64,000 bases of DNA from Raillietiella orientalis (lineage: Eukaryota). Positions 7,000-64,000 of this stretch are shown piece by piece (within the stretch, counting starts at the first letter, position 1; every line of letters begins with the position of its first letter). A model generated the notes under the pieces. The model was given only the letters and a program-made list of their open reading frames with translations. It did not search any database and was not told where the DNA came from. The stretch spans positions 3,100,001 to 3,164,000 of the forward strand of contig JAYWIR010000008.1 in assembly GCA_036172245.1 (NCBI GenBank), in the 5' to 3' direction. A program made the position numbers and the translations under genes.

Positions 7000-8250
7000 T
7001 ACCTTGAAGCCGTCCTCACAAAGGCGGCGGCCATGCTAGTGCCCTCCTTTCGCTGCGAATGAAACTCCACCACGGGCGGGCTGCAATGATGGTGCGGATG
7101 CAACATCTTGTTGCCATCACGGAGTCTGACTCGCAACCTGTTTGCGTATCACCACTGCCGGCTCCCATCTTGCGATTTCCCTCTCCGGTGTGTCGCTGCT
7201 CTGGTGAGAGCGAACTCGTGGATTCGCTGCCGATCTGCAAATACTCCGGCCTGGAGGCAGGAGAAAGTGAGGACTTGGGCCCAGCTCATCCGGACCCCGC
7301 TGGAAGTTGCCCGCTGCCGAGAGTTTCAGAAAAACAGCAGAAGAGCACTGGAGGTGGTATGTAGTGAGCTGACCATGTTGGCCTACCCACCAGCCACCCC
7401 CTTCGCCGCAGCGGTGTCCTCCGCTATCAAGGTACATGGCATCTGCCTACCGGCGAAGTGGGAGGTTTCCTGCGAGATCTCGGCCCGCGAACTCTTCTCC
7501 ATTCGTCCCGAAGAGTTGGAGGTGCCCCCCTTGTTTATGGACAGGAAACTGCTTCATCTCAAGTGGCAGCAATCGGCGCTGCTGATATTGCATTGGGGGT
7601 TTCCCGTGCAATGCACGTTGGCACTACTGGACGAGGGGAAGCACATCGCCGAACTGTGGCAGGTGTGGAGAGAAGGAGACTTCCCTCCACCTCATATTAC
7701 AGAGTGTCGCCCTCCGGCACTTGTGGGAACGTTTCTCTGCGTCCCTTCCGCATCCCGCGGACGATCTTAGAGACCATTTCAGGTCGCTCTTCGTGCGGGA
7801 CGCCATGACGCCCGCAGCTGCAATCGCAGCTCTGTGCTGTGTGCGCGGTGTCGCGGCGAAGTGCGACGCCGAGAGAGGCCGGAGCTACGGGGGGGCTGTC
7901 CTGCACGCCATCGGCTTCCTACAGATGGCTTTGAGGTGACCCCACCTGGAAAGGGAGATGGAGGAGTCGCCGGCATCCTTCAGCGGATGCAGAGGCCTCC
8001 CACCCACCACCAAATGTGATCCCTTCCCTTCCCCCCAACTAATTTTTGTTTTTTTGTTTTTGTTTTTTTTTGTTGCTTGTTATGGTTTGTTTACATTTTT
8101 CATTTTTGTTTCACCCTCCTTCCCCTTCGTGAACGTGATGGATCTCTCCACCCCCATCCCCCCTCTTTCTAGTGTAACAATTGGAATTGGTGGGCCATCG
8201 GCTCCATAGATTCCTGTAAGAGAATAAACGCCTCGGCCCACTCGGGTGCG
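7000..8250 (+). mobile_element. L1/Tx1-like LINE 3' portion
   Basis: LHLKWQQSALLILHWGFP, CGRCG-type finger, LFVRDAMTPAAAIAALCCVRG, T-rich UTR, terminal AATAAACGCCTCGGCCCACTCGGGTG. Confidence 0.85.
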
Positions 8251-20199: not shown

Positions 20200-21435
20200 G
20201 TTACGGGTAGGCGCAGAATGCATCGACCCATGATTTCCAGGGAAATCTGAAGTACGCGGTCCTTGCAATAACACGGGACACCTGAAGAGAAGGTGTCCCG
20301 AAATGCAATGTTGCCACTGGGAGCAGTTGGAATACATGCAAGCAGAGTGCCCGAAAAAGGAATGGTCGAGTTCTTTACGCTGCGGAAATGGAAGAAAAGG
20401 AAAAGACGCACGGAAAAGCCAGCGAGAACTGGAGAATCAAAGAGCGGACAGGGTCTGCGTCAGCACCCGCGAATCTCTCTCGAGACGCCTCGGCTGGGGA
20501 AAATAAGGTCATTGCCAAGAAGGCTGAAAGGCACCAGTTTTGTCAAGAAAGAGAAGAAAGGAAAGTCCTCGCGCCATGACCGAAAAGCCGAGAGGAAGGA
20601 GCAGATACCACCGTTGAAGATAACGCTCGAGCGCCTGAATACGCGACCGGTAAAGTTGCCAAGGCGACGACCGGTTCAGCGACCGTTACCGTGGAACGCG
20701 ATGACGATATTCCCTCCAGCTCGCAGATCTCAGCCAAGAATAGGCGCAGGGGAATCCCCTCGGGAAATTCCCGACTCCGGGCTGGAGCCGGAAAACTCCG
20801 TTGAGGGACCCCACAACACGAGGGTCCGTGAGATCCAAGCCCGGACGCGGCATGCATCCCCATGAGGGGAGCAAATGCCGGAAGTGAGACGATGTCCGTG
20901 GGATCGCAGAGAGGGTCTTGCGATACCAATCGTCCGAGGCTCCTGCAGAGAAAGAGAGGAGAACGATGGGCACGGATCGTTCTCTCCCCGAGAGCTGCCA
21001 CATCAGCTCGAAGCGGGAACCACGGAAGAAACTTCCCAGCAGCAATGCGAGAGAGTCGCCTCTTTGCATCTTATGCGAACTGCCGTTTGGCGCCAGCGGA
21101 ATTCCTCCGCAACGGCGTCAAAAGGCGAGCAGTGGTGGAATTGCTGAGCCACTTCGGCCTCGCTCTCCTCCAGGAGGTCGACAAGGTTCCCGCGGAGGAG
21201 GCTGCGGAGCTCGAGCCGCGCGCCCAGAGAGAGCTGTTTATCACCCGGGTGCGCCGGGGCGTTTATTACAAACTATCCGGGAACAAAGTTCCCGGACAAA
21301 GGGGTAAACAAGAGACGAAGCCCAGAGAGAGCTGTGTCGGCGTTGAGGTGCCTCACGCTCGTGCGGAGTTGCGCTTCCCGCGCCCGCGACTCGCACGGAT
21401 GCGATTCGCAGCCTCCGTTTCGACGATGTCGGATC
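20200..21435 (+). mobile_element. L1/Tx1-like LINE 5' part: ORF1 zinc knuckles and start of APE endonuclease
   Basis: PCNNTGHLKRRCP-EMQ-CCHWEQLEYMQAECP double knuckle; ASYANCRL..KRRAVVELL..LALLQEV and SRSCGVAL APE motifs. Confidence 0.75.
21238..21319 (-). mobile_element. 82-bp 5'-truncated LINE insertion with 16-bp TSD
   Basis: GCCCAGAGAGAGCTGT at 21222-21237 and 21320-21335 flanks a minus-strand AATAAACGCCCCGGCGCACCCGGGTGA end. Confidence 0.85.
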
Positions 21436-21540
21436 AACTTGCCCTCAAGACAGAAACAGCCAGACAGCCGGATCACCTTACCAACTCCAAACTCCAGCCT
21501 CGTGACTCCAAAGCGCACCGCTTCGATTATCTTTCTCGAA

Positions 21541-21575
21541 TGTTCTCGAGCGGAGTAATGTTTTACGCTGAGACA
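21541..21575 (-). promoter_or_regulatory. Candidate degenerate rolling-circle origin stem-loop
   Basis: Minus strand TGTCTCAGCG-TAAAACATTACTC-CGCTCGAGAACA: 10-bp bulged stem; loop contains AAACATTAC (1 mismatch to NANTATTAC); 35 nt upstream of the rep ATG. Confidence 0.35.
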
Positions 21576-21610
21576 CGAGAACCGCCGAAAATCATCCCTG
21601 GTCAGCAAAA

Positions 21611-22747
21611 ATGCCCTACTCTGAACACTGCCTTGGTGCTTTGCTTTAATCAACTACAGCCAGGAACGATAAAGCATCTATATCATGGTACGCCACAAAC
21701 TCGATATACGGCATCATGGGAAAAGAAACCAGTGCAACAGGAACTCCGCATCTTCAGGTGCACATGCATCTCTCCAAGATCCCAGAACCATCGTCCGGCT
21801 GAAGACGACCAGAGATATAGTTGAATTTGGTTATGTTAGTATGAGAAGTATGTTTAGTAATAGATTATTGGCTTGCGTGGTTTGGAGATATCATAAGATT
21901 TTAATTTTAAGTTAATGTTGGTTTTCTAAAGTTTATCTCGATGAGAGGAGCACACTTCCAGCATTCAAGAGGTACTGCCAATCACAACATGCACTACTGC
22001 TCCAAACAAATACACAACTCTGGACCACTGGCAACTCTTCCAACGATAAACACCAATAATACGAAAAGCACTCCATAGGGTAATGGGTCTCATGCGTGCG
22101 ACCCATGACCGCACAGCGTTCCCTCTTGAACAAAAAGGTATGTTTCTTTGTAGACATTGCAAGATACACAAGGCAGATTAAAAAGGATCAATGGACTATA
22201 CGTAACCATGACCTCCTATGAGAGCGCATCTTCGTAAAAGAAGCCATTCGTCTAAACCATAGTAAGTCATACCCACACCTACTGGCCAACCTCAGACTCC
22301 GCCACTGGCAACCTCAACCACTTCAAACACTCAGCCAACCACCACGACAGGGGCATCCTGTGGTGTCACGATCCCCAAGGAGACACACAGGAAATGTCGC
22401 AAGAGCCAAGTATCTTTGGCTAAAACTCAACGCAGCATATCTCCAAAGCTAAGAAAAATCAAACACCGCACACCTCTACAACGGCGAACCCATAGTGTGC
22501 GTCGACTTCACAAAAGACGACCAAGAAACCGTGCGATATGCTTTTTATCGAATCAATTAAGAAAGGGATCATTTTCGACATGAAATTCCAAGAAGCAGTC
22601 AAGTTCTCCCCATCGCCTCTCATCCTCTACTTCACTCACTCGCTGCCACACAAACCCAGCCAAGAGACGTGGAAAATCATCCGCAGAACCCAAGTCCCTT
22701 CGCCATGGAAAAAAACAGCGGACCTTACACTACGCTGTCCGGAGTGA
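21611..22747 (+). pseudogene. rep: CRESS virus Rep (HUH endonuclease plus SF3 helicase), frameshifted
   Basis: Motif I WCFALINY (21634), motif II GTPHLQ (21740-21757), motif III AHFQHSRGTANHNMHYCSK (YCSK 21995-22006), LRHWQ, DRGILWCHDPQG-TG..AKYL (Walker A region), YNGEPIVCVDF (Walker B), IESIKKGIIF..K, ETWKII. Confidence 0.9.
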
Positions 22748-22823
22748 GCCAAAACTGAAACGCCTTTAAAATTCGCAAGCGAAAAAACTCAAAGCAACCA
22801 GCAGCATAACAGCATTCTTTATT

Positions 22824-23724
22824 TTATACTTTCGACAACTGAAAGTAACGAACACAACGAACCCTAACAGCACCCCAACTACACGCATAGCGCCCAAGAA
22901 CTAAGTGTTTCAGTCGCATCACCACTCCAACTCTTAGGAACGATAAACGAGGAAACATGCCTTACAGGATCCAACCAAAAACCAGAGTTCACTTCAACAC
23001 TCCCACAACCAGCACTCAACTCATCATAAGGCAAACATGGAGACCTTATCTTGTCATAACAAGCACCTTCACTGTTCCCGTGCTCCCCAGGGCGACGTTT
23101 GTGAAACGAAAGCCATCACGGTCGAAATCAGACATCTCTACGCACTGCTGATCCCTTGCATCATCCAGATATTTTCCAGCTGTATCGTAATCCCAAGAAC
23201 AAACAAGACTAGGAGGAAGAACAGTATGGAAATGACTGCGATACTCAACTCAATCCTCAGGATAAAACTTGTCCAGCCTCAACTCAGAGGTTCCGCAACC
23301 CACTTCACACCATGAAACTCTGCCCAATGAAAATTATCCGCAAAGTCCATTGCTCCAAACTCCTCCAACCACTCAGTAACATTCTTAGACCCCCGTCCCC
23401 TTCATCCACCACCATACTACTCAAATAGAAAGCAGCAAAAGCCACTCGCCGCACCCAGCAACTGATGATAATTCAGCGACTGATCAAACTCTCCAGCAAA
23501 CTGCCGAGAACGACAGCCGAATCAAGCAGACGACAAGGCACCCGACCATTAGGACCCCGAAAACGACAGCACTTTTTGAAACGCCTAAAACGCATGTAAC
23601 GTCTTCTCTTGCCAATCTTCTCTTGTCCACGTCTTTTCTTCGCGATTCCTGGAACGAACCGGCGCAGCCTCCCTGAACAAATATTCACTGCTGACTCTCA
23701 ACCCAAACGCAAGTATTTGTACAT
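22824..23724 (-). pseudogene. cap: CRESS virus capsid protein, frameshifted
   Basis: Arg/Lys-rich N-terminus (RLRR..KKRR..KRRRYMRFRRFKK), FADNFHWAEFHGVKWVAEP, PPSLVCSWDYD, FWLDP, C-terminal VRVRCVRYFQLSKV* immediately followed by AATAAA. Confidence 0.75.
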
Positions 23725-23751
23725 TCCTGAAACTCAATCCCGTAATCCCGT

Positions 23752-23774
23752 ACGCCTCGGGCGTACCCGGGTGA
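23752..23774 (+). mobile_element. 23-bp LINE 3'-tip insertion with 17-bp TSD inside the viral sequence
   Basis: CAATCCCGTAATCCCGT at 23735-23751 and 23775-23791 flanks ACGCCTCGGGCGTACCCGGGTGA, the LINE terminal hairpin. Confidence 0.75.
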
Positions 23775-23899
23775 CAATCCCGTAATCCCGTTGCGACAAA
23801 CGTCCACGCAGTCACAACGTGGAGAAAAATCGATTCTTCGGCGCGCTCGGGAGCCACTGGCTAAGCAACGCGGATCCCAACGTGGTTCATATGATATCA

Positions 23900-25300
23900 T
23901 AGCTCAACCTCCGCCTGCTATCTAATGGCACCCGAAGAAAAATCTTCGAGGACAGATGGACGAGTTGCGCGGTCGGCTGACGCTGCCAACTTGCTCACTC
24001 ACTGGGAAGTACAACTCCGACCACTTGGATCACCTGTGTTCGCTAGTGGGTCGAACAGGCAAAATGGGATCGACCCTGTCAGGCCATTCCAGGATCGAGC
24101 CGCAGCTGCATCCCCTTGGCCGAGGCCATCTGCTGAATCTGTGGAGGCTACCGGCAGATCAGCTCAGCCAGCCGGAAGCCGCGGAGCAGGTCTCCTCTCC
24201 TTCCTCAGTGGTTAGGGTGCATACGTTTGAAGGATTTGATTTCTTTGCCATCACCAAGCTGGAGGACTGGGAGCTCTTCAGGGATTCCGCCCGACAGTTT
24301 TGCGTCCGGAAATACCCGCACCTCCTGCTCCAAGGCTTAGGGTGGGGTATTGGTAACAGCAGGGTTTTTTTTTTTCTACAGGCACGGACCCACTCCAGGT
24401 GTCCATATGCACGCGGGCATGCAGAGTACAGGACGAGGACAGAAAGACAGATTTGGCTGTCCGGAGGAGCATGTCTTCTGGACGAGAAAAGCCTGGAACG
24501 ATCGGATTCAGCTGAAGTAAAAAAAAAAGTAGTGCGTAACTTTTACTCCAAGATACACGCAAACGCACCCTTCGAGCTCGACTTCACAGAGAAGCCACTT
24601 CCAGGGTGCGCTTCAGAGCTAAGCGAGGAGGAGTATGTGCGCTTGGACGAGTGCTTTCCAATGGCGAAGATCGCCTCCGCCGTCGGAAATCTCGAAAAGC
24701 GTGGAGCACCAGGAGAAGACGGCCTGCCGGCGGACTATTCCCAAGTCTACTCTGCAGATGTGTACCCCTGGTTCGTAAGCTTCCGATGCTGATACGGGAG
24801 AGGTGCGAGGTGCCTTCCTCTTTCCGATCGGCTCGAGTTCGTCTCCTCCCGAAAGGAAGAGGCGCACTCTGCACGAGCAGCTGGCATCCGATCACCTTGA
24901 TGACCTCGGACGCCGAACTGCTCTCAAAACTGTGGGGCCATCTCCTGGGGCAGGTTGTGAACTTTGCCATCAGCCCGGTACAGTCCCACACTGTTCCTGA
25001 GGGTACATAAAGAACTACCTGTTCTTCACGCAGATCTAGGTTCGGCTGCAGAAAAGGGTTGCAACTGAGTACTACAGGGCCAATAGTACTCGGAAAGATG
25101 AGAAAGGCCAGAAAGACGGGAATCACCGGGAGTCTCGCGGCTGCAGTTGTTCTCGATAAGTCGTTCTGCATAAACCAAGGACTCCTTCTGAAACTCCTGG
25201 AATGCTTAGGTCTCCTGCAAATCCTTCTGATCTATGTACACTCGCTTTGGAGAACTGAACTCATAAATATCACTTTCCGTGGCTGAGACGTGTACGGCGT
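23900..25300 (+). mobile_element. Continuation of the interrupted LINE ORF2 (APE end plus RT)
   Basis: NLRLL..MAP (YAP-like), GRGHLLNLWRLP, APGEDGLPADY, WHPITLMTSDAELLSK, LLKLLECLG. Confidence 0.8.
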
Positions 25301-26287
25301 GACCCAAATAAAGTGCCTTCGCATATTTTGACATTTCCAACAATGCTTCTTATTTAACTGCTCACTACAATTCAGGAATTATTAACATATACGTATTGTG
25401 GGGGAATTTTCTCATTTAAACAATGAAATAATTTTACATTCTGAATCAGTTTTCAATCTGGAAAGAATGGCAACATACTCGATAAATTGCTTATTTGCAA
25501 GAACACTATCAAGTTCTTCAGTAATGTGAATGGTTCAACTGCGTCCATACAATTTTGTATGTTCAGTTTAGCGTTCTCAAAATGTCTAGAACATCGGTGT
25601 GTTCATGTTTATGTATCTAGTAATTCATAGTTTCTGGATTTGCAAACAGCACTGATCTCTAACAGATTTCTCTATCTATCAAATACGCTAACATTGGTAA
25701 TAGGAGAAGAAACCGTTCTGTCACAGTTTTCTGCATATCTCTTGGTTTCCGATTTTTATCAAACATATTCCCTGGAGCTTTTCCGAATAGCTTCTCCCAG
25801 TACTGATGGTTAGTCCTATGAAATAATTCGATAATGAAGAGGCGTAATTTAGGTTTCCTATTTTTTATAATGTCCAGTTCCAAGATTTTTGGTAGAATAA
25901 GAGCTAGTCTCAAGTGGTGCTTTTGTAAATACAAACCTTGAGATCAGAAGTACACAGATTTGCACCAGATGTAATGTAAGAAACCTAGATAAAGCAGAAC
26001 AAGAAAATATTCTGCAAAACTCAACGATTTTAACCATGAGTTACTATCAAATTCAGAGACCGTCAGAACAAAACAAATGTGTCTTAGTATTTGTGAATGG
26101 AGGATATTGCACCAAAGAAATTCATGAATATGGTAACATTGCACATTATTGGATTTAATAATTTTCGTTTGGAAGGCTAAAAGTTTCGTTTAAATCAATT
26201 TATTCCGCATACAAAATGCCAGTAAACCCCTTTAGTTTTGAAGTTGAAGGTAAACACACTACTCAGCCAGTTTTTTGAACTTGAAGC

Positions 26288-28393
26288 ATGTCTGTTGAGG
26301 GAGCTTCCAACGGTAGAGGCACCAACATGGAATTAGAAACAGAGAGGGTGAACAATGCAGAACTAATGAAGCTTAAGCGAGAATACCGAGTTTTAGAGAA
26401 GGAAAGGAGAAAACTTTTAGAAGAGTCCAAAAATGATTTATTGAAACGTAGGTTGGTATTCCCATTAATGATACGTAACGAGCAATAACATCCTTACGTT
26501 CCTGTATTGCTTTCATCAGAACTCTTATCAAAAGGCTAGAAAATGAAAAACAGCAACTTGTGACAGCACTGAATATTGCAGAAAATCCTTCAAATAAGTT
26601 AAGGAGCAAGAAAGAATCTTTAATGTTAGCCAAATTGCTATCTGAACAAGAAGATACTAAGAAATTAATTGAAGAGGAAACAATGCAGGTAGTGTTGCAG
26701 ACTAGAAAAAAGGGCTCCATGATCTTATTCCAAACAGATAAATTCTCTCGATCTGGAAATTAAGGCACTGAAAGATGATTCAGAAATTAATGCAGATGCT
26801 GTCACTGAAACCAAACACTTAGATTTACAAGAAACCATTGAAAAATTGGAAAACAAATTGGAAACGGTACCTATGTGTAGTGCCTTGGATCCCTCTAAAA
26901 TCTATAATCAAGCTTTCCGTACATTTCAATGAAACTCTGGCTGAAAATGCAGCCATGAGAAAGAAGATTGATGATTTGATGAAAGAAAGATCACAATTTG
27001 GGAAAGAGTTTGAGAATCTGAATAAGCAGATGACAGATGTGAGGAGAGAGATCCAGAACTTAACAGAACAAGCTATACAGGCATTTGACCAAAGGTCTGA
27101 TCTGTTTCTTCACGTAGTGAATTTAAACATGAGATATTGTAGGGAGGAAACATTTACAAAGTTGCAAGGTCTGCAAAAAAGATGTGAAAGAGAGACTCAT
27201 CAGAGCACTAATGATATGCAAGAACTGCAAAGATATCTTGATCACAATCAGAAGTTGCAAGAATTCATGCAATCTAAAAATCATGAGAGGCAACGGACTC
27301 TAGAAATTGAAAATGAAAAGCAAAATGCTAGGAAGAGTAAATGCGTTGTTTGTTTGTAGATAGATTCTATATTGCAAACATATTTCGAATAGCAGTAAAC
27401 TGTGGTGGAAATCGTAGGTCCTCTGAGTGAAAGAATGGACTTATCATCTGGAGAAGCACTGCAATACTACCAGGACATATTGAATGAGATTCAAGAGATG
27501 GAAAATGTGGTGGAAGTGGATCAGCTAGTGGATGTTTTTCGTGCAAGAGAAGAACAGAACTTTTCTTTGTTCTGCTACATTCATATGTTGAATAGAGAAG
27601 CAGAGGAATTGCAGTTGCAGCTGCAAAAACAGATGGAGCAGATCACACAGATTGAGGAAGAAGGTGCTATGGAAGAAGAGATGAGAGAGGAGCAGAAGCA
27701 AATCATAGGGGTACTCTAAATATCAGTAATTTTGTAAGATACTTGGATACTTGTTTTAGCAAGAGGTTGCTGTGAGTGAGGAGCTGGCACACAAGGAAGA
27801 AGAATATGTTAGGGAAATGGAGGAAACATTTTTCCACGTCACTTCAGGAGTCCGTGAGCTGTACCAGAAACTTCATTGCAGAGATGAGCAACTGTCTGCT
27901 TATTTAGGTGAGGCATGATGAAGGTGGCCACTGATTTACATGGTTTCAGGAGACCAAGATCAAGTGACTGTGGACAACCTCATTCTATACATTGTTGCCA
28001 TAGAGAAGCGTGTAGGGGAGCTATTGCTAATGAAGGAAGTTTTGGATCAGGGCTCAAAAGCGGCTCACAAAAAAGTTTTGAAAAAGTTGTCAGAGATCAT
28101 CATTCCTGTGCCCCAAGGTGCACCACAACTGCAAAGCCCTGCTCCAAGCATCAGGTGAGTGACAGAAGAGCCCTGTGCCATTTTTTTTCTCAAGGGAAGA
28201 CGTGGGAGACTTGTGGGGTTGGCCTCTCACTGAAGCAGAACTGCGAGCAGAAGCTTGGAACCATCACGAAATCTCACAGGTGGATTTCCCGAGTTCTCCA
28301 AAGCCAAAGACCAGGTCCACCAAACCTCGAGGCATCAAAGAGGAGCTTACAAGCCCAGCATATCACCGCAAATCATTTCATACGCACTTCTGA
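26288..28393 (+). CDS. ODAD1: Outer dynein arm docking complex subunit (ODA1/DC2; ODAD1/CCDC114/CCDC63 family), 9 exons
   Basis: Exons about 26288-26451, 26520-26688, 26738-26866, 26913-27094, 27143-27336, 27418-27710, 27760-27907, 27950-28154, 28195-28393 splice in frame at GT-AG sites; family motifs FNETLAENAAMRKKIDDL, EEQNFSLFCYI, YIVAIEKRVGELL, PLTEAELR. Confidence 0.88.
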
Positions 28394-36922: not shown

Positions 36923-37800
36923 TGGGTGTGCCGCAGCGTTCATTTCATATAGAAAAATAAACAATCACGGTCTCTGTGGTCGGACCGCCGGTCCAACCAC
37001 GTTCAATTTAACGGAAGCTTGCCGAGTAACCGGTATGCAGACCAGCGAGGTCCGCCATGGCAACAGAGGAAACAAAAGGAAAAAAGAAACAAGAATAAAA
37101 ACAAATAAACAAATTTGGAGGGGAGGGAGGTGCAGAGAAAGATCATTGTCTGCTGTCTGCAGTGGTCCTCTGCATCCTCTCTGTAGGATGCCGGCAAGCT
37201 CCTGCTGTATACAGTCCTTCAGGTGGAGCCATCTAGTGACCATCCTCATGGATCGGACGACACAGTGGATGTGGCATCCCTGTCTCTGTGCCCTCTTCTC
37301 GAATTTCTCAAAGTAGGTACGATGCCGCGCAGGCAGCAGAGAGATTCTTGCAAGGCTGCTGGCCGAAGGGCGTCGCGAACGAGGAGGGGTTTCATAGCGT
37401 CCCTGGAGTTGCCGCTGGGGGTTCCTAGGATCGCAGCACAGCTTTCCCAGGAAGGCTGGAGGGCAAAACAATTTACGAGCAGGTGAGGGAGAGATTCGCG
37501 CTTCCCGCACCTGGCACAGTTTGGGTCTATACTCCCCCGTGTCCAGTGATGTTGGCGGGCGTTGCCCGGGAGACCCCAGTGCAGCAGTATCAACTCCTGA
37601 CACTTTAATGGGAGGGTATCTGTCCAGAAGTGCTGGGGGCCTCTGCAGGTGGCCCCCAATACCTAGTAGCTCAACCCAGCGCAAAAGTCCTCGGGATGGG
37701 GCATTAGGGGTCGCAGCGTCTGTAAGCTGATCCATCGTCCACGCATCTGTTCCTTTTCCACTTCCGGGGATGTTTACAGTAACCTCCTATCTAACAGCAA
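36923..37800 (-). mobile_element. LINE 3' portion
   Basis: LLHWGLPGNARQHHWTRGSIDPNCARCGKRESLPHLLVNC; T-rich UTR; terminal motif at about 36923-36947. Confidence 0.85.
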
Positions 37801-38077: not shown

Positions 38078-38700
38078 TTTTCACCCGGGTTTCGCCGGAG
38101 CGTTTATTAAAAAATAAAGTTTTACAAAGACGTGCAGCCGCTGGACCAATGCTCCAGCCATGCACGAAGAAACAGAGCCTGCCGGGTTACCGGTTCGCAG
38201 ACCGGTACGGTCCACCACGGCAGCAGGGGGAAGGGGATAAACAAAAAAACTAAACAAAAAGAAAAGAAAACTTGGGAGGGTACGGGAAGAAATCACTGTT
38301 TCTGCTGGGGCCGTTGCATCCTTCGCAAGATGCCGGAAAGCTCTTTCTGAATTCCTGGATCCAGGTGGGGCCATCGCGGCGCCCTCCTCAACAATTCGGC
38401 GGCGTGCTGGATGGCACCCTTAACGCGGGGTCCTCCCGCAGCCTTGCTCCAAGCGGCGACGATCCAGCGAAGGCAGCACAGGGCTGCTAACGAGACCGCA
38501 GGCCGAAGGGCTCGGCAACGAAGAGGGCTTTCAATGCGTCCCTGGGGTTGCCGCAGGGGATTCCGATAGCCGCGGCAAAGCGTAACCAAAGGGGCCGAAG
38601 GGCAACACAATCCACAAGCAGGTGGGGGAGGGACTCCCGTTCCCCACATCTAACACAATTGGGGTCCACCGCTCCCCAGGTCCATTGGTGTCGGCGGGCG
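38078..38700 (-). mobile_element. 5'-truncated LINE with 14-bp TSD
   Basis: CCACAAGCATTCGA at 38064-38077 and 38701-38714; CVRCGERESLPHLLVDC; ends AATAAACGCTCCGGCGAAACCCGGGTGAAAA. Confidence 0.9.
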
Positions 38701-40798
38701 CCACAAGCATTCGACTGCCTCGACCAGGAACTACTTCTGGAGCTTCTGGAACGCATGGGATTTCCGGCCGTCTTCCTGGCCTACCTGCGCCCCTGCTGGC
38801 GCTCCGCGTACATAAACATTGATTTCAGCGGCCGGCATGTGTACGGCGTGCCGGTTCGTCGCAGCATCCGGCAGGGTGACAGCCTCAGTCCCCTGCTCTT
38901 CAGCATCTACTTTGAGTTGGTGCTGAGAGCATACAGGGAGACTTTGGCAACCCTGTCGAGCTCCTGTCCCGGCACGCCTGCCGTGTCGGCCTATGCCGAC
39001 GACCTCCTGCTTCTGCTCCCTGGCATCGGCGCTCGAGGATTTCTTTGAGTTGCTGCGCCGCGGGACAGGCCTAGAGGTGAACAGGACGAAGTCGTCGTTA
39101 TTATTTACAGACTCGTCGCGGGCAGGACGGTCGGACTGGATCCGCTTGGGGATCCCCACGGGCGGGTACCTTGGCGTGCCGTTGGGGGACTTCTGCCCAT
39201 CAGAAGCCTGGTCAGGTCGTCTCCAAAAAGTGGAGTCGGCGATCGGCCCGTTCCTGGAGGGCAAGTTCCTCTTGCCGGAACGGGCCGCAGTGTGGAACGC
39301 GTTCGCGGCTCCCATCCTTCGCCCCCTGCTTTTTGTTTCACCCGTTCCTACCCAGTTGAAGAAGAGGACCAAGGACCTACTCCGCATCGCCCTCTGGGGC
39401 AAGGGGAGGCCTAGAGTGCCTCTGACGGACTTATGCGCTCCGCGTCGGGACGGCGGTCTTGGTCTCCTGACGCTGGAGCGCTTGGAAATCCAGCTGCGAT
39501 GGCGCACGTTGGCCATCGCAGCGAAGTTGTGGAGCACCACTTGGTGCGTACCGGCCCGCCTTCTTGCCAGCCGTGTTTCCAGGACGCAAGGACTAGCGTC
39601 TTATCTTCTGTGCTCCGGCCGGAAGATGCGAAGATGCGGCCTGCTCCTTGGACGCATGTCCACCTTGGCTAAGGAGAACGGCTGGATGGTATGCAGCCCA
39701 GCCGACTCCTCCGCATGGCTGGAGGAGACTGCTGGCACGTGGGCGAAGATACATGAGAGGAGCCACGAAACGTGGAACTGCCTGCGAGTCGGCTTCTACG
39801 CCCGCCGCACTCTGTGTGAAATTCTTAAATTTCCAGCGAGTTGCACGTGGGCGGAAGGGACACCCCTTGCTACGGCGATGCCCTTCCTCCAAAGGGCGCT
39901 TCACGAAAGCCGGAAGCCGAGGTGGCAAGTATGCTGCCGTATCGCAGGCAGAGAGAAGATGATGAGCGGCTGGACCATGGGAGAGCTGACAGATGCTACG
40001 ACCCCAAGTGTCCAGCCGCGTGGATTAAGAAGATGGGGCGAGCTGCTCGACATTCGATTGGATGACCTGAAGTGGCCTCCGGTTCTACTTGGATCCAGGA
40101 TTCTTCCCCTGAAGTGGCAAGAATCGGCGCTTCTGTGGCTGCATTGGGGTCTACCCTGCAATGCGCGCCGCTTCCACTGGACGCGGGGAAGAGTAAATCC
40201 TGCGTGTGCCAGGTGTGGGGAGCGGGAGTCGCTCCTCCACCTCCTAGTTGACTGCCCTGCCGTCCGGATTTTTGGTGATCGTCTTGGAACGGCCCTCAAT
40301 ATACCGGAAGGTGGCAACCCCAGGAATGTTTACAGTCTTCTCTTCGTGCGGGACGCCATCAGTCCAGCCGCAGCCCTCGCAGCACTTTGCTGCATCCGTG
40401 GTATCGTGGCGGCCTGGAGTAATGCCGAAGATGAAGATTCCGCCGTAATGGACGTCATGCCATATGCTGTTCGCTTCCTGCGGAGAGCTATCGGATGGCC
40501 CCAGCTGGGAAGATTGAAGGAGGACCTCGAGGGTATCCTACTAAGGATGGACCCTCCTCCCAGTAGACTGTGATCCCTTCCCTTCCCTCCAAAAACTCTT
40601 TTTTTTTTGTTTACTGATTTATTTTTCTTTTTGTTTTTTCCCCCCATCCCCTTCCACTGCCGAGGAGAGTCACACCGGGCTGCGTCCCGGTGTCCCGGCA
40701 GGTCTGGCATTGAGTGGCCGTTAGTGGGGCCTTGTATCACGTACTGTAATGACGAATGAAGCGTTTTTTTAATACATGTCCCGGAGTACTCGGGTGGC
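38701..40798 (+). mobile_element. Best-preserved L1/Tx1-like LINE: RT domains 3-7, thumb and C-terminal zinc finger, 5'-truncated, one frameshift
   Basis: AFDCLDQ, IRQGDSLSPLLF, AYADD, GLEVNRTKS, YLGVPL, LCAPRRDGGLGL, CARCGERESLLHLLVDC; 526-aa ORF 38993-40573; terminal CCCGGAGTACTCGGGTG. Confidence 0.95.
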
Positions 40799-48807: not shown

Positions 48808-50010
48808 ATGGTTACGCCGGAGCGTTTATTTATATAAAAAATTAACATACAGGTCAGTGGCAAAACGCTTGGTTCTGTCACGTTACATATATAAACCAAA
48901 AGGAATCTGCCGAGAGCCAGCACGCAGGCCGGAGAGGTTCGCCTCGGCAGCAGAAGAGAGGGGGACAAACAAAACAGAAAAATAAAACAAAAAATATATT
49001 ACAAAAAATAAGAGGGTTCGGGAAGGGATCACCAGGAAATGGAGGGCGTCCTCTGCATCTTTGTAAGAATGGTGGAAAGTTCCTTGATGCTATCCTCATG
49101 AAGAGGACGGTAAAATAGATGGTGTCTTTGTCATTTTGGCCTCCTCTTGCGTTACTCCATGCATCAGCGATCCCGCGTAGGCAGCAAAGCGCTGCTGGGG
49201 ATGCAGCCGGCGTGAGGGTGTCGTTCAGGAAGAGGCGCTTCAAAATGTCTCTGGGGCTGCTCTAGGGAATACTCAGGGACGCAGCAAAGCGTTTCCACAT
49301 GGGACGGAGGGCAAAGCAATCCACGAGCAGGTGAGAGAGGAACTCTCTCTCGCCACACATGCTGCAGATGGGGGGCACACCTCCTCCCCCGGGTCCAATG
49401 ATGTCGGCGGGCGTTGCACGGGATCTCCCAATGCGACAGAAGGATCGCCGACTCCTGCCGCTTTAGGGGGAGCGTAGCACTGTTCCAGCACGCTGGGGGC
49501 CACTGTGCCTCCTCCGAAGGAATTTCCAGTAGCTCTCCTCAGAGTAGCATTTCTTTTGAAGGGACACTCGGGGTGGCAGAATCTGTCAGTTCCCGAGTTG
49601 TCCACGTATGTAAACGTTTTTTCCTGTTATTAATTCTGCAAGTCACCTCCCACTTTGCCGGAAGGTCGCTGTCTCTTGCTTCCCGTAGGGAGGACAGCAC
49701 TGGGGCGAGGGAGATGGACGACTGACTCCCAAAGCAGATTCCTGGTGTCTCCAGGATCTCCCCCAACGACTGACGAGTGCCTCTGCTGTTTCGTAGGCAG
49801 ATGCACTCTGTCTCGCTTGTGTCGTTGATTTCACCCATGCGAAAACAGACTCCTACAGCCAAGAAGCCCAAAAGGACGGAGGACGGAGATCCTCGCGGGG
49901 AGGACGGAGATCCAAGGATTTCGTTGTACCAAGGCAACCATTTGGCGAAGTTGGGAGCCAAGATGGCTCAAACTTCGCCAAAGAGAGAATTCTGGTTAAG
50001 CGGCCATCGT
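48808..50010 (-). mobile_element. LINE 3' portion
   Basis: TWTTRELTDSATPSVP, LFLNDTLTPAASPAALCCLRG; terminal AATAAACGCTCCGGCGTAACC. Confidence 0.8.
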
Positions 50011-58852: not shown

Positions 58853-60420
58853 CCACTCATGCGCGCCGGGATGTTTATTTCATATAAACAAATAAGCATC
58901 TACAGTCCCTGTGGTTGGACTGGTTATCCATCCAACCACGTCCTTTTCAGATCAAACCTGCCGCGTGACCAGCGCGCAGACAGGTGAGGTTCATCACGGC
59001 AGCAGAGGAGAGGGAACAAACAGAAAGAAAAAGAAACAAAAAATAAATGAATAAATTTGGGAGGTTGTGGGAAGGGATCACGTCCTGTTGGGGACGGTCC
59101 TCTTCATCCTTTCGAGGATGCCAGCAAGCTCTTGCTGGATGTTGTTTTCCAGTTGGGACCATCTCGTTGCCATCCTCATGCAGCGGACGGCGAAGTGGGC
59201 TCTTTGCTCGCGTCGGAGGCCATGTGGTCGCAGTCTCCGTGCGTGGCACCAGGCGTTGCGGATTCGAATACTCGAAAAGAATCGACGCCGTGAATGGGGG
59301 GTGCGTTGTGAGTTCGAATTCCTCCAGCAAGATGACGCTGATTTACATCTATACGGGTGCGGCGCCGGTAGCGGTTAAAAGCGAATGTCCCCGATAAGTG
59401 GCTGGGATTGGGAGTCGACCCTCTGGGGTCCTTCCAGGAATCAAAGAGCTCTCGGGAGCTCCCCTCCGGTTGCACAAAGGAGCGGAATCCCCCTTCGAGT
59501 TGACCGACCCTCTCTTACCATGAAGCTGGTGTATTGATGGTGTTTCTCCAGTGCTGAAAGAAGCGCGCTCCGCTCCCTTCGGGTAGCGCCCTTCTGAGAA
59601 ATTTCGGAAGAGTCCTTTCGGAGTTCTCTTCAGAGTAAACAGGAGCGGTTCCCTTGAGGGTTCCCTCCGTAGGATAAAAATGGAGCAGACGCTTTCGGGG
59701 GTTCCTCCAGAGAGAATAAGGAAGGAGATTCCTTCCGGGGGTTCCCTTCGGAGACAGCGAGGATGGCGGATGATCGGGGATCCTTCCCCAAGCATGAGAG
59801 AAACGGACTCCCTTCTCCGGATCTCTTCCTGGATTAATAGAGTGGTCCCCTTCTGAGATACCCCTCATCTTGAAGAATTACACGGAACTTCGGGTGGCGT
59901 GTAACAGTGTTAAAGAGCTGAGTGAGCCGCCAGGCGCGAGTCGGTTCTTGAAGTACTTAGCGAAGTGGATGGCATCCCTCTCTCTCGGTCCCCCTCTTTC
60001 GTGGCTCCAGGCAGCTACAATCCCGCCTAGGCAGCAGAAAGCTGCCAGCGAGTCTGCTAGCCGAAGGGCATTGAGAACGAGGAGGGGTTTCAGATCGTCC
60101 CTGGAGTTGCCGCTGGGGGTTTCCAGGATCGCGGCACAGCGTTCTAAGAGAGGCCGGAGGGCAAAACAATTTAAGAGCAGGTGAGGGAGGGATTCGCGCT
60201 TCCCGCACCGTTTGGGTCCATATCCGTGTCCAGTGATGTCGGCGGGCGTTGCCCGGGAAACCCCAGTGCAGCAGCTTCAACTCCCGCCACTTTAATGGGA
60301 GGGTGTGTCTGTCCAAAAGCACTGGGGGCCACTGTAGATATTCCACCTGAATATCTAGTAGCTCGCCCCGGCGCAAAATTCCTCGAGGTGGGCACTTGGG
60401 ATCGCAGCATCTGTGAGCTG
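58853..60420 (-). mobile_element. LINE 3' portion split by a SINE insertion
   Basis: LPLKWRELKLLHWGFPGNARRHHW; sequence is contiguous across 59199-59959; terminal motif at about 58853-58880. Confidence 0.8.
59199..59959 (+). mobile_element. tRNA-derived SINE-like repeat, copy 3, with 9-bp TSD
   Basis: GCGAAGTGG at 59190-59198 and 59960-59968; B-box-like GATTCGAATAC and GAGTTCGAATTCC. Confidence 0.7.
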
Positions 60421-61149
60421 GCCTGAAAAAAAGAAAGAAAAAAACTGGAAGGAGAACAGCAAAATAGAACAACCGAAAAGGAGTTCCACCATCCAGCTGG
60501 ACATAATGGCAAAGAGAAGTTCCACGGGACCTCCCTGCGATCGGAACTAAATGTGACGTGTCTCTTGCCAGAGGGTCGATTTCATTCGAGTGAAGCCCTC
60601 GACCAGGAGCCTAGCGTCCATTCTCCAGGAACACCGATCCAATACCAGGGTTGAGTGAGCAGTGGTTCATTGATGCGAGCTTGATTTGGAAATCTGCTGC
60701 AAGGCTGCCTACAGGAGGCAGAAACGATCGCGAAGGTTTCGCTGTATGCTTGATAAATCCCGTACACCGTTTTTCTGAATATGGTCAAACCACTGGTGGA
60801 GCTTGGAAAGCTAAGATCGGATTGTCACCGGACTATCGAATGAAACAGACTGCCTTAAGATAAGAAAGCATCTTCCAGAACTTTCTCGCTCTCAGAGACG
60901 CCGCTTTTTCGGTTTATATTTTTTCATAATTGTATATTAGTACAATCATGAAATTTAAACTTTTAAATCTTTAATGGACGAAGTGCAACACTATGAAAAC
61001 CATTAGCTGAACCAAGGAGAATGGCCATCATAAAGAGATGCCTACAGAAAATAAAGTGTGCACACACGATATACAGTTACTACAAGAAGAAATGGAATTT
61101 GATGAACATCCTGGGCATACCCGTAAGGTTAGGATCTCTGTACTCATTG

Positions 61150-62480
61150 GATCCCATCACAGTAGGGTCTGAGCAGCCTAAAGCATCTGCTATATAGGGT
61201 GTTTTTTTCATAGCAGCTGCCAGTTGGATCCCTAATTTTGACTTCACGCCGGAATTTTCTTGTCACAGCTTTTCGGTATATTTTCCAGAAAATCGGATGC
61301 TGCTCCATCTACAGGTGGTAACCCCCTTGCCACCACATTCGGTGTTCACGCCTTTTATCGTTCGAGTCTTAAAGGTATGTGACTAAGCGAACGTTTAGGA
61401 TACACCATTGGTTCTTGAGATCGATCTTTCTGAGCCACCAGTATTCTCAAGGTCATCCCAAAACAGATCCTCTCTTCTCGGATTTAAACCCAAGTTCTTC
61501 CAAAATTAATTCACTCCCAAACAAAAGGCTCCAACTCTTCTCATAATTTTGACCTAGTAAACAGCTGATTTTTCACACACGCAGTGTCGTCTTTATGATG
61601 ATCATTGGTTGGAATGCATCCATGTTTTATACAATGTACAGTATATCAAAGTGAGAGAGAAAATGAGTTGTTCTTCACCGAATTTCCATATAAGAGCTAT
61701 AAAGAAAATGCTTCTTGTTGTTCATGTCTTTTTGTATGTTTCCATCAATTTTGATCCCATTAGCAAAAATTATGCAATATTTCAAAGACTCATCCTTAAT
61801 TGTGTTTTATTTCAGAGAGCCTATCCACTCACTACCTATCCTTTCATGTTTTGAAAAGCTAAAGAATATTGGCCTAAGAGCACTTGTTACCATGATGTCC
61901 CTTACTATGTTCCAAAGGTACGAAATTCGTTCTCCAAACATGCTAAATCATGTCTTTTGCAAATACAGTATTCTTTGCCTGCTTTCTTGTTTTTTGAAGA
62001 GCTGTACTTCTGTTTGCTGCATATTGTGGAACACCTCCATGCATCTAAACAAGACATCCAAATTCAGTCATTTTGTTCGTTGCCAGTGGTGTATTTCTTT
62101 CCAAATACTCTGGGTTTGCTAACATCATCCTAACACGCTGCAATTGAGTCTTCATGTTCTGTTTCACGCTTAAATTGCATTGCATTGCATTGTCGCTGTT
62201 ACGCATCTTTTTTTTACACGGGAATTTCAGCCTTCAAAGCAGAATTGACTATCTTCCGCTACATATCTGCAGCATCATGAATGATCTCTGTACACCCTCT
62301 TGAAAATTTTTCCCACAGTTTTTATGACTTGGTTTTTAGGCACGAATTCATGTAGTACATCCAGCTGCATTGTGCTCACACATCACAATGTTTTTTTTTT
62401 TTCCAGTTTATAAGACACAGTAGCCAAGTCCAGAAGTTTCAGGTAGAACGGAAATTGGACAGAAGTAAGGAAGGTCATTA
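61150..62480 (-). mobile_element. MULE transposase remnant
   Basis: IAxFLLMGSKLMETYKK, TRTIKGVN (RTNN-like) and HPIFWKI in the order expected for MULE; many stops. Confidence 0.45.
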
Positions 62481-64000
62481 TTTAAAGTTTCTTGATACTG
62501 TAAGAGTTTCTAATGATAAAAAATAATACTATATTTCAAGGAACTCGACAACAGGTTTTAAAAAAAAAACTCAGGGAAACATTATTTTATTTGAATCATT
62601 GTTGCAAAATTGTCGGTTTCATTCTATTAATTACTGCCAGTCTACTGTCAAGTAATTTTATTGCAAACTTTACTGTATAGGTCATTACTACTTTAAACTT
62701 CTATTATGTTACCAAAGGGAGATTATAAATATTATAGTTTGTAAATCTTGTAGCTACGAAATAATAAGTTCCTTATTGGAAACTGGAAAAAATAGGATGG
62801 ATGTGGGGCTTTAAATTTTTATCTAATTTGTGTTTCCAAATAGCCCATTAAAGGATAGTTTTAAGATAATTCCGTATTTTGTTCCTGCTAATACAAGCTC
62901 CTTTGGTTTCTGTGAATTGCTGTTCTAAAAACATCCAAAAATTCCTTTTTAAGTGATCATGTTTCTCATCTATATTTTGATGAGAGACTCGATCTAACGT
63001 GCGTGGCCAGGATGTTCATTTCATTCCGTTTCTTCTTGTCGCAACTGTAAAACACACTTTGTGCACACTTTATTTTCTTCATGATGGCCATCCTTCTTGG
63101 TTCAACTAATGCTTCTCATAATGATGGACTTCATCCATTAAATTAGATTTTATAGAATTGATGGCTGGTCAGTAGGCCAGTCAACAATTCTGCAATCAGT
63201 TATTTAATGACTCCACATTCGTATGGAAAATTTAGTCTTTACAATCAGTATTCAGAGTATTTGCTTTTAAATCATTCTGACTATAATTTTGTGCTTAATT
63301 ATTTATGCCTTATTAAGCTCAGTTATTTTTATTTAACCTCACAGTTTGTAAAGCATTCTTAAGTTCACTGACGTTTTAGGTGGGGTTTTGGAAGAGACAT
63401 GTATATAGGTTTCTAGCTTAATTTATAGCTTATCTAGTTTTATTAATTTATATCTAGTTTATAGCTTAATTTATTGTTTCATCAGTTAGTCGATTACATT
63501 ATACTTGATGCCTTTACAATACAGATGAATAGTGGTCATGTAAAAAAAAAAAAAAATCAGTTTCAGAAATGCAAAAAAAAAAAGTCGTGCATTATATTTT
63601 TTAAATGAATCAAATATCGTGCTGACCAAACGCTGCTTAAAGTATACAAAACACGTTAATTCATTCCGTCTTCTCATCAAACTAAGATTAATAATTAATG
63701 CACAAGTAGTCATATCTCTGGAATAAAGGGAGAAAAAGTCGGTCGAGTTGGTTGCACTAGTTAGCCGGAAAAAAATCTTCAGAAGGAATGTGCTAACGAT
63801 TGCTCCAACGGGGTATACGTTTTTACATTTTCCTGCATTTCGTAATTTCGGCATCCCTTTTAGTAATATTTTGTTAATAAATCTCCCATGAAACGTGGGA
63901 ATCAATCTGTTGCGGTAAAGCGTGAAGAAATAACTGTGGCTTTCTCATTCTCGCTGGTGCATTGAATTTTTTTTTTTTTTTTTTCTTCTTCCCATCTCAA

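Follow-up and report, generated by a model that had tools for sequence, protein, structure and literature searches.

We examine here a 64,000-nucleotide (nt) stretch of DNA from Raillietiella orientalis (assembly GCA_036172245.1, contig JAYWIR010000008.1, positions 3,100,001 to 3,164,000 of the forward strand), which we refer to as the window and whose positions are counted from its first letter. Approximately between positions 21435 and 23830 the window contains a segment of ~2.4 kb, with edges that are not sharp, which appears to derive from a small circular Rep-encoding single-stranded DNA (CRESS) virus. On the forward (+) strand it carries a Rep pseudogene combining an HUH endonuclease with a superfamily 3 (SF3) helicase (21611..22747, with the ATG at 21611-21613 and the stop at 22745-22747), and on the reverse (-) strand a putative remnant of a capsid gene (22879..23697). 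We interpret the segment as an old, decayed endogenous CRESS element that retains a near-complete viral genome, and we assign a probability of about 0.6 to this statement as a whole.

The Rep pseudogene

The identity of the Rep part follows from protein similarity. A phmmer search with the + strand frame that contains most of the motifs, run against 1.84 billion representative proteins, returned five matches with E-values from 4.9e-5 to 8.6e-4 and no others. All five matched proteins belong to the Pfam family Viral_Rep (E 3e-15 to 1e-21) and are 304-358 amino acids long. The alignment of these five closest Reps (A1) was converted into a profile, with which the whole window was searched after translation in six frames. 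The profile matches at E 8e-14 in the frame that had been used to find the five proteins and at E 4e-8 in a second, independent frame that played no part in finding them, while elsewhere in the 64 kb the best score is only E 0.49. The matches in the two frames span profile positions 31-318 and cover both domains in the correct order. When the five Reps and the Rep open reading frames (ORFs) of 78 IMG/VR contigs were used as tblastn queries (best E 3.7e-7 for the contig ORFs), the matched pieces formed a single colinear path. Similarity to bona fide Reps, the basis on which a Rep is assigned to the Cressdnaviricota, extends across both domains. An original prediction made from the letters of this DNA had placed Rep motifs on the + strand, and phmmer, Pfam and the five-Rep profile agree that these are colinear with intact Reps far beyond what chance would produce; the absence of any Rep profile hit, which that prediction had named as grounds for abandoning it, is contradicted by both profile E-values. 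Judged by this similarity, the left part is almost certainly an endogenous CRESS Rep.

The individual motifs can be followed along the gene as it passes from one reading frame to another. The motif I-like sequence WCFALINY (21634-21666, frame 1) and motif II, GTPHLQV (within 21689-21778, frame 2), were located by tblastn with three Reps (P0008, P0009 and P0010), and motif III, HYCSK (within 21926-22054, frame 2), was located by tblastn at the place where the partial Pfam Viral_Rep match also falls. The segments CFALIN, PHLQV and YCSK align to invariant columns of A1 that correspond to the rolling-circle replication motifs I (FTLNN-like), II (HLQ) and III (YxxK). The helicase domain is found in four consecutive pieces that were recognized by tblastn, by the profile and in the translation, namely a piece with LRHWQ at ~22294 (22294-22335, frame 1), the piece DRGILWCHDPQGDT (22343-22387, frame 2), a piece with VCVDF that is interrupted by one stop (22390-22539, frame 1), and a piece with IESIKKGIIF...WKII (22547-22744, frame 2).

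No open reading frame for Rep remains in this interval, which requires at least six frame changes and contains several stops; the three-frame translation of the + strand over 21420-22800 has 16, 10 and 17 stops, in agreement with the original prediction that the motifs do not form a long ORF. The helicase motifs that it listed are present, in alternating frames. The Walker A motif (GxxGxGK[ST]) is degenerate: the site reads GDTQEMS or is frame-shifted. Because the motifs are scattered over frames with so many frame changes and in-frame stops, the Rep gene is dead and unable to make Rep; it is a pseudogene and not a working member of its family.

Between motifs II and III the Rep is split by a foreign-looking, C-poor block (21811..21925, + strand) with 3 C in 115 nt and 44% T, a base make-up opposite to that of the rest of the element. 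The block has no second copy in the window. An intron reading was tested, and a split at this position was found in none of the 78 related loci. The block may be an insertion or the remnant of an intron. An open frame of 330 codons (20832-21824, + strand) spans the boundary between the GC-rich left flank and the element and reaches the region of motif II; it matches no Pfam family and may be a chance product of stop-poor sequence.

Relationship to other Reps

The element was placed in a quick tree of 77 Reps, in which it was entered as a read-through with an X at each break. It sits on a branch of length 2.09, and its best identity among the 76 other Reps aligned is 36% over 210 columns, to P0008. 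The nearest rows of the tree by path are P0010, L003, L002, P0008 and L004, where the rows labelled L are IMG/VR loci; only a set of 34 rows around the element has support, with a value of 96. A search of the viral contig collection with P0008 revealed no closer relatives, and the 22547-22744 piece of the element has none in viral or metagenome contig collections. Searched against the PDB, the five-Rep profile matches 5xor, 7lar and 2hw0 at E ~1e-32, and 6h8o and 2hwt at E 1.9e-14; we take the former three to be Reps of porcine circovirus 2 and the latter two to be nanovirus Reps. The resemblance to nanovirus and alphasatellite Reps that had been proposed for the helicase pattern is therefore not upheld by this comparison, an indirect one that works through the relatives of the element, as the profile of its five nearest Reps is far closer to 5xor, 7lar and 2hw0. 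The neighbouring cluster of P0011 includes 'Skomarfal virus 46', which comes from a freshwater-mussel virome study (PMC10458741) whose consulted passages do not describe this virus.

Extent and strand composition

In a table of 100-nt steps the + strand is rich in A and C from ~21400 to ~23800, which agrees with the total of about 2.4 kb in the original prediction. Over the element the GC skew is -0.25 and the AT skew is +0.21. Both values lie outside the ranges of 64 related circular genomes (-0.16..+0.26 for GC skew and -0.16..+0.19 for AT skew), and the GC skew also lies outside the range of host windows of 2.4 kb (-0.11..+0.17). The bias reaches -0.34 in the right half and is less pronounced in the Rep (-0.17). 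Within the Rep the bias is strongest at third codon positions, where the frequencies of A and C are 0.32 and 0.38 compared to 0.23 and 0.25 in the 78 relatives. A simple fit with two change points recovers no more than the core 21951-23595, as the pattern is broken by the C-poor block. Since the bias runs through parts of the element that are read in both senses, it does not arise from codon usage. An APOBEC-like sequence context was considered as an explanation of the bias and was rejected, as there is no dinucleotide preference.

It is mainly the extension of the strand bias over both halves that argues for a common origin of the right half and the Rep. The length of the segment is also consistent with a single genome: subtracting the 40-nt and 115-nt inserts leaves ~2.2-2.3 kb, and the median of the relatives is 2149 nt. 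The closest loci are circular viral contigs of 2.0-2.7 kb with a second large ORF and a stem-loop origin. Among the relatives the layout is ambisense in 51 of 57, and in the top related loci the second large ORF has an N-terminus rich in Arg and Lys. We consider it probable that the opposite-sense region at 22.8-23.7 kb, as the capsid side, and the Rep together make up one ambisense genome of unit length.

The reverse strand and candidate origins

The putative capsid-gene remnant consists of broken ORF pieces at 23473-23697, 23305-23472, 23279-23401, 23046-23249 and 22879-23115, all on the - strand; the evidence that points to a capsid gene consists of place, strand, size and the shared strand bias. 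The first piece is an ORF of 74 codons (23473..23697) rich in Arg and Lys, which could be either the N-terminal arm of a capsid protein or an eS30-like fragment. It has 20 Arg or Lys in its best 45 residues, the highest value in the window, whose six frames hold just 4 stop-free places of this sort, and the N-termini of the non-Rep ORFs of the relatives have 18-23. The AATAAA signal that had been predicted on the - strand is read directly at 22818..22823; it lies 55 nt beyond the stop of the last ORF on that strand (22879-22881), and the Rep stop is 71 nt away.

Two weak hairpins are candidates for a replication origin. The first (21533..21581, + strand) has an imperfect stem of 16 bp and a 13-nt loop (21553-21565) that contains AGTA and TTAC with extra bases between them. 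The distance from the start of its AGTA/TTAC motif to the Rep ATG downstream is 57 nt; the median for the 30 relatives that have an origin motif on the Rep strand is 52.5 nt before the ATG (range 22-262). The pattern AGTA-N(0-6)-TTAC occurs in the 64 kb once on the + strand and five times on the - strand, and a strict scan that requires a perfect 5-bp stem has 0 matches. The second hairpin (23803..23823, + strand) has a 6-bp stem and the 9-nt loop CAGTCACAA, with AATCCCGT occurring twice just before it. Its DNA fold has a z-score of -2.69 and is equalled by 5 of 200 shuffles, and its loop has 5 of 9 places in common with the CAGTATTAC of relatives. The relatives themselves have an intact (C/T)AGTATTAC in a loop on a stem of 9-12 bp.

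Integration and the host region

A host retroelement tail of 23 nt (23752-23774) lies inside the segment on the + strand, where the repeat search found it between perfect 17-nt direct repeats (23735-23751 and 23775-23791; 23735..23791 in total). To judge by these repeats, the tail is a post-integration insertion with a target-site duplication. Its position inside the element is direct evidence that the viral segment was already part of the chromosome at a time of active host retroposition. In the left flank an 82-nt retroelement 3' end of the same family (21238-21319, - strand) lies between perfect 16-nt repeats (21222..21335 in total). Further to the left, 19809-20174 matches the 3' ends of long interspersed nuclear elements (LINEs) elsewhere in the window, and in the right flank 25167-25322 matches the reverse transcriptase at 38716-38871. 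In this assembly the segment is thus bordered by host sequence at either end and has itself undergone host-type events, which argues for an endogenous element.

Copies of this retroelement family are found at 8223-8248 (+), 21238-21319 (-), 23752-23774 (+), 38078-38116 (-) and 48810-48830 (-). Its 3' end consists of AATAAA followed by ~25 nt (…CCGGCG.ACCCGGGTGA) and then an A-rich tail that is very short, and the 82-nt and 23-nt copies are extremely 5'-truncated and framed by perfect target duplications of 16 and 17 nt. The inverted repeat 21238/23760 and the AATCCCGT repeats could be taken for termini or iterons of the virus. This reading was rejected in favour of host repeat events, because the shared 23-26 nt are the 3' end of the host repeat, which recurs at 8223, 38078 and 48810, and because each copy is framed by target duplications.

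The window as a whole is eukaryotic and rich in retroelement debris, with an RVT_1 domain at 38491-39048. Reverse-transcriptase ORFs of the LINE type that carry a Cys/His motif at the C-terminus are found at 38491-40573 (+), 36965-37786 (-) and 59878-60610 (-). Among 5.8 billion proteins the LINE ORF at 38927-40573 (548 amino acids) has a single relative, a metagenome protein with 60% identity, which suggests that the host lineage is poorly sampled. A long exon-like ORF at 26823-27359 (+) matches the central coiled coil of ODAD1, an outer-dynein-arm docking gene (E 8.9e-27), and shows that the host builds motile cilia or flagella; it sits in an AT-rich stretch (GC 0.35-0.40) beside GC-rich repeat DNA. 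A search for this exon within longer proteins had no match, and the ESM Atlas returned just the generic ODAD1 family. The GC content drops sharply to 0.33-0.40 at 25001-28000 and 61001-64000, compared to ~0.5-0.6 elsewhere, and the reverse-transcriptase remnant of the right flank appears to continue into the first of these AT-rich stretches. Rfam, tRNA and tandem-repeat scans of the window returned nothing informative.

Interpretation and alternatives

The history that would best account for these observations starts with a DNA copy of a small CRESS virus that entered a eukaryotic chromosome and subsequently decayed. The double-stranded replicative form may have been joined into the LINE-rich region through recombination, either non-homologous or assisted by Rep, the circle opening at some point of the intergenic region that separates the starts of the two genes. 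The original prediction was more specific and placed the opening in the 5' intergenic region; we do not retain this detail, because neither an intact nonanucleotide nor a clear origin is left from which the opening point could be fixed. The element probably has no function today.

A number of results weigh against this interpretation, most of them concerning the capsid side. Pfam scans of the three - frames and of six ORF pieces found no capsid family, and the sole match listed, SAM_2 at E 0.013 in a piece of 40 amino acids, is at chance level. With 354 ORFs of the 78 related contigs as tblastn queries, the best - strand match has E 0.03. We also built 47 cluster HMMs from 157 non-Rep ORFs of the same contigs and used 50 shuffles and the reversed sequence as controls; on the capsid side the best real score is 3.4 bits, compared to up to 6.2 bits for the shuffles. 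A phmmer search of the PDB with the three - frames found nothing capsid-like, and a circovirus-like capsid strand motif at 23332(-) was dropped after it proved to be present in none of the largest non-Rep ORFs of the 78 relatives. By our estimate the lengths of the - strand ORFs are approximately as base composition predicts. The ends of the element provide similar results. The DNA fold of the hairpin at 21533-21581 has a z-score of -1.73, and 12 of 200 shuffles fold as well; in the non-coding ends AGTATTAC has no match with one mismatch or fewer, and with 2 mismatches it is seen 5 times against 3.15 expected per 600 nt, a background rate. As for the Rep, the only Pfam family found in the three + frames (E up to 1) is Viral_Rep with E 0.1 and 13.3 bits, compared to a gathering cut-off of 26, a sub-threshold score that is expected because the gene is split over frames. 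Lastly, the junctions rest on one assembly.

CRESS capsids diverge fast. Consequently, the absence of capsid homology in every test that was run lowers the claim of a near-complete genome without excluding it, and a capsid gene is plausible by position only. The claims of a capsid relic and of a whole circular genome are retained in part: the Arg/Lys-rich ORF lies on the - strand as predicted, and size and layout would fit one unit-length ambisense genome, but the capsid identity has no support from profiles, tblastn or the PDB.

The same negative capsid tests would be expected if only the Rep (~21.5-22.75 kb) were viral and the right 1 kb were unrelated host or repeat sequence, with the basic ORF being a decayed eS30-like retro-pseudogene or a product of chance. 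This explanation, which we regard as possible but rather unlikely, draws on a phmmer search of the PDB in which the basic ORF matches eS30 at E 0.029 over ~45 residues, with 24 of the 25 chains listed being eS30, a result that counts against a capsid and that two control N-termini from the largest non-Rep ORFs of relatives did not reproduce, as they had no eS30 match. Retroposition is also active in the region, as evidenced by the truncated retroelement tails with duplications. The E-value of 0.029, however, loses its weight once the numbers of frames and searches are taken into account. For the basic ORF Pfam lists no family at E up to 10, that of eS30 included, although its filters may drop weak matches; a search of the ESM Atlas gave no usable match, and a word-based search gave one candidate and none that was scored. 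Neither a poly(A) nor a duplication frames the ORF. The strand bias of the Rep half continues, and becomes stronger, across 22.8-23.6 kb and on both sides of the basic ORF, and a unit genome would account for the total length and the layout.

Two further explanations concern the Rep itself. It could come from a cellular Rep-bearing mobile element or a plasmid-derived gene, Helitron-like or other, instead of a virus; it does sit among transposable elements, and neither capsid nor origin is proven. We consider such a source very unlikely, given that all five of the closest proteins are of the Viral_Rep type, 304-358 amino acids long and with an SF3-type helicase, that the closest loci are circular viral contigs with a second large ORF and a stem-loop origin, that no Helitron or PIF1-type Pfam family appears in the three + frames at E up to 1, and that the element is present in a single copy in the 64 kb. 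The dependence of the junctions on one assembly would also allow an exogenous virus contig to have been misjoined by contamination or chimerism, the outcome of unsupported junctions that the original prediction had itself considered. A replicating virus would keep its Rep and Cap frames open, whereas this stretch has undergone at least six frame changes, contains many stops and holds a host retroelement tail with a target duplication; a misjoin is accordingly extremely unlikely.

The favoured reading of a decayed, near-complete CRESS element can be extended. The element could be a near-complete fossil, comprising the origin side, rep and the capsid side, of a CRESS lineage that has no close living relative in present sequence collections, lodged in a poorly sampled ciliated or flagellated eukaryote, and the strand bias together with the opposite 115-nt patch could record strand-asymmetric mutation of viral DNA around the time of integration, for example by host editing of single-stranded DNA. 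We find this combined statement improbable; if true, it would tie the lineage to a host and also preserve a trace of how that host responded.

Few approaches can connect the thousands of circular Rep viruses known from metagenomes with their actual hosts, and endogenous CRESS elements are among them. The present element indicates that the nucleus of the organism from which the window derives was once a site of replication for a divergent Rep lineage, whose identity to the nearest of the 76 aligned Reps does not exceed 36%. The host link that had been claimed for it holds to the extent that a CRESS-type Rep is flanked by host retroelement sequence in the assembly, but it is of little use while the nearest Reps are so distant. 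The value of the element is also limited in that it is dead, its capsid is unrecognisable, and whole-genome CRESS integrations have already been described.

Comparison with known systems

The Reps of solved structure that we take to be of the circovirus and nanovirus types share the HUH fold family with the element, and the profile of its five closest relatives matches both groups, whereas the element itself, when its own frames are searched against the PDB, reaches only E 1.9, to the Rep endonuclease 7kii at motif II. The unclassified environmental Reps of the Cressdnaviricota, such as P0008, P0010 and the IMG/VR loci L002-L004, are closer. They have in common with the element the Viral_Rep endonuclease, the SF3 helicase and the order of the motifs, with Reps of ~340 amino acids and genomes of 2.0-2.7 kb that are mostly ambisense. 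They differ from it in having the intact (C/T)AGTATTAC loop, which the element lacks, and the element lies on a very long branch.

Integrated CRESS genomes provide the most direct comparison. Kinsella et al. 2020 (PMC7493932) describe CRESS genomes that were integrated as a whole, with both Rep and Cap, in Entamoeba and Giardia, and use them as host links; these elements are reported there to have 73-84% nucleotide identity to known exogenous viruses over 99-100% coverage, with a recognisable Cap. The likeness lies in a CRESS-type Rep in a eukaryotic chromosome, alongside the rest of the genome if the capsid reading holds, and in the actual or possible use of the element as a host link. In contrast, the nearest Rep to the present element is at most 36% identical, its Cap is unrecognisable and its ORFs are destroyed. 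The present element is of the same kind as the Entamoeba and Giardia integrations, and is older, more divergent and less complete in its provable parts.

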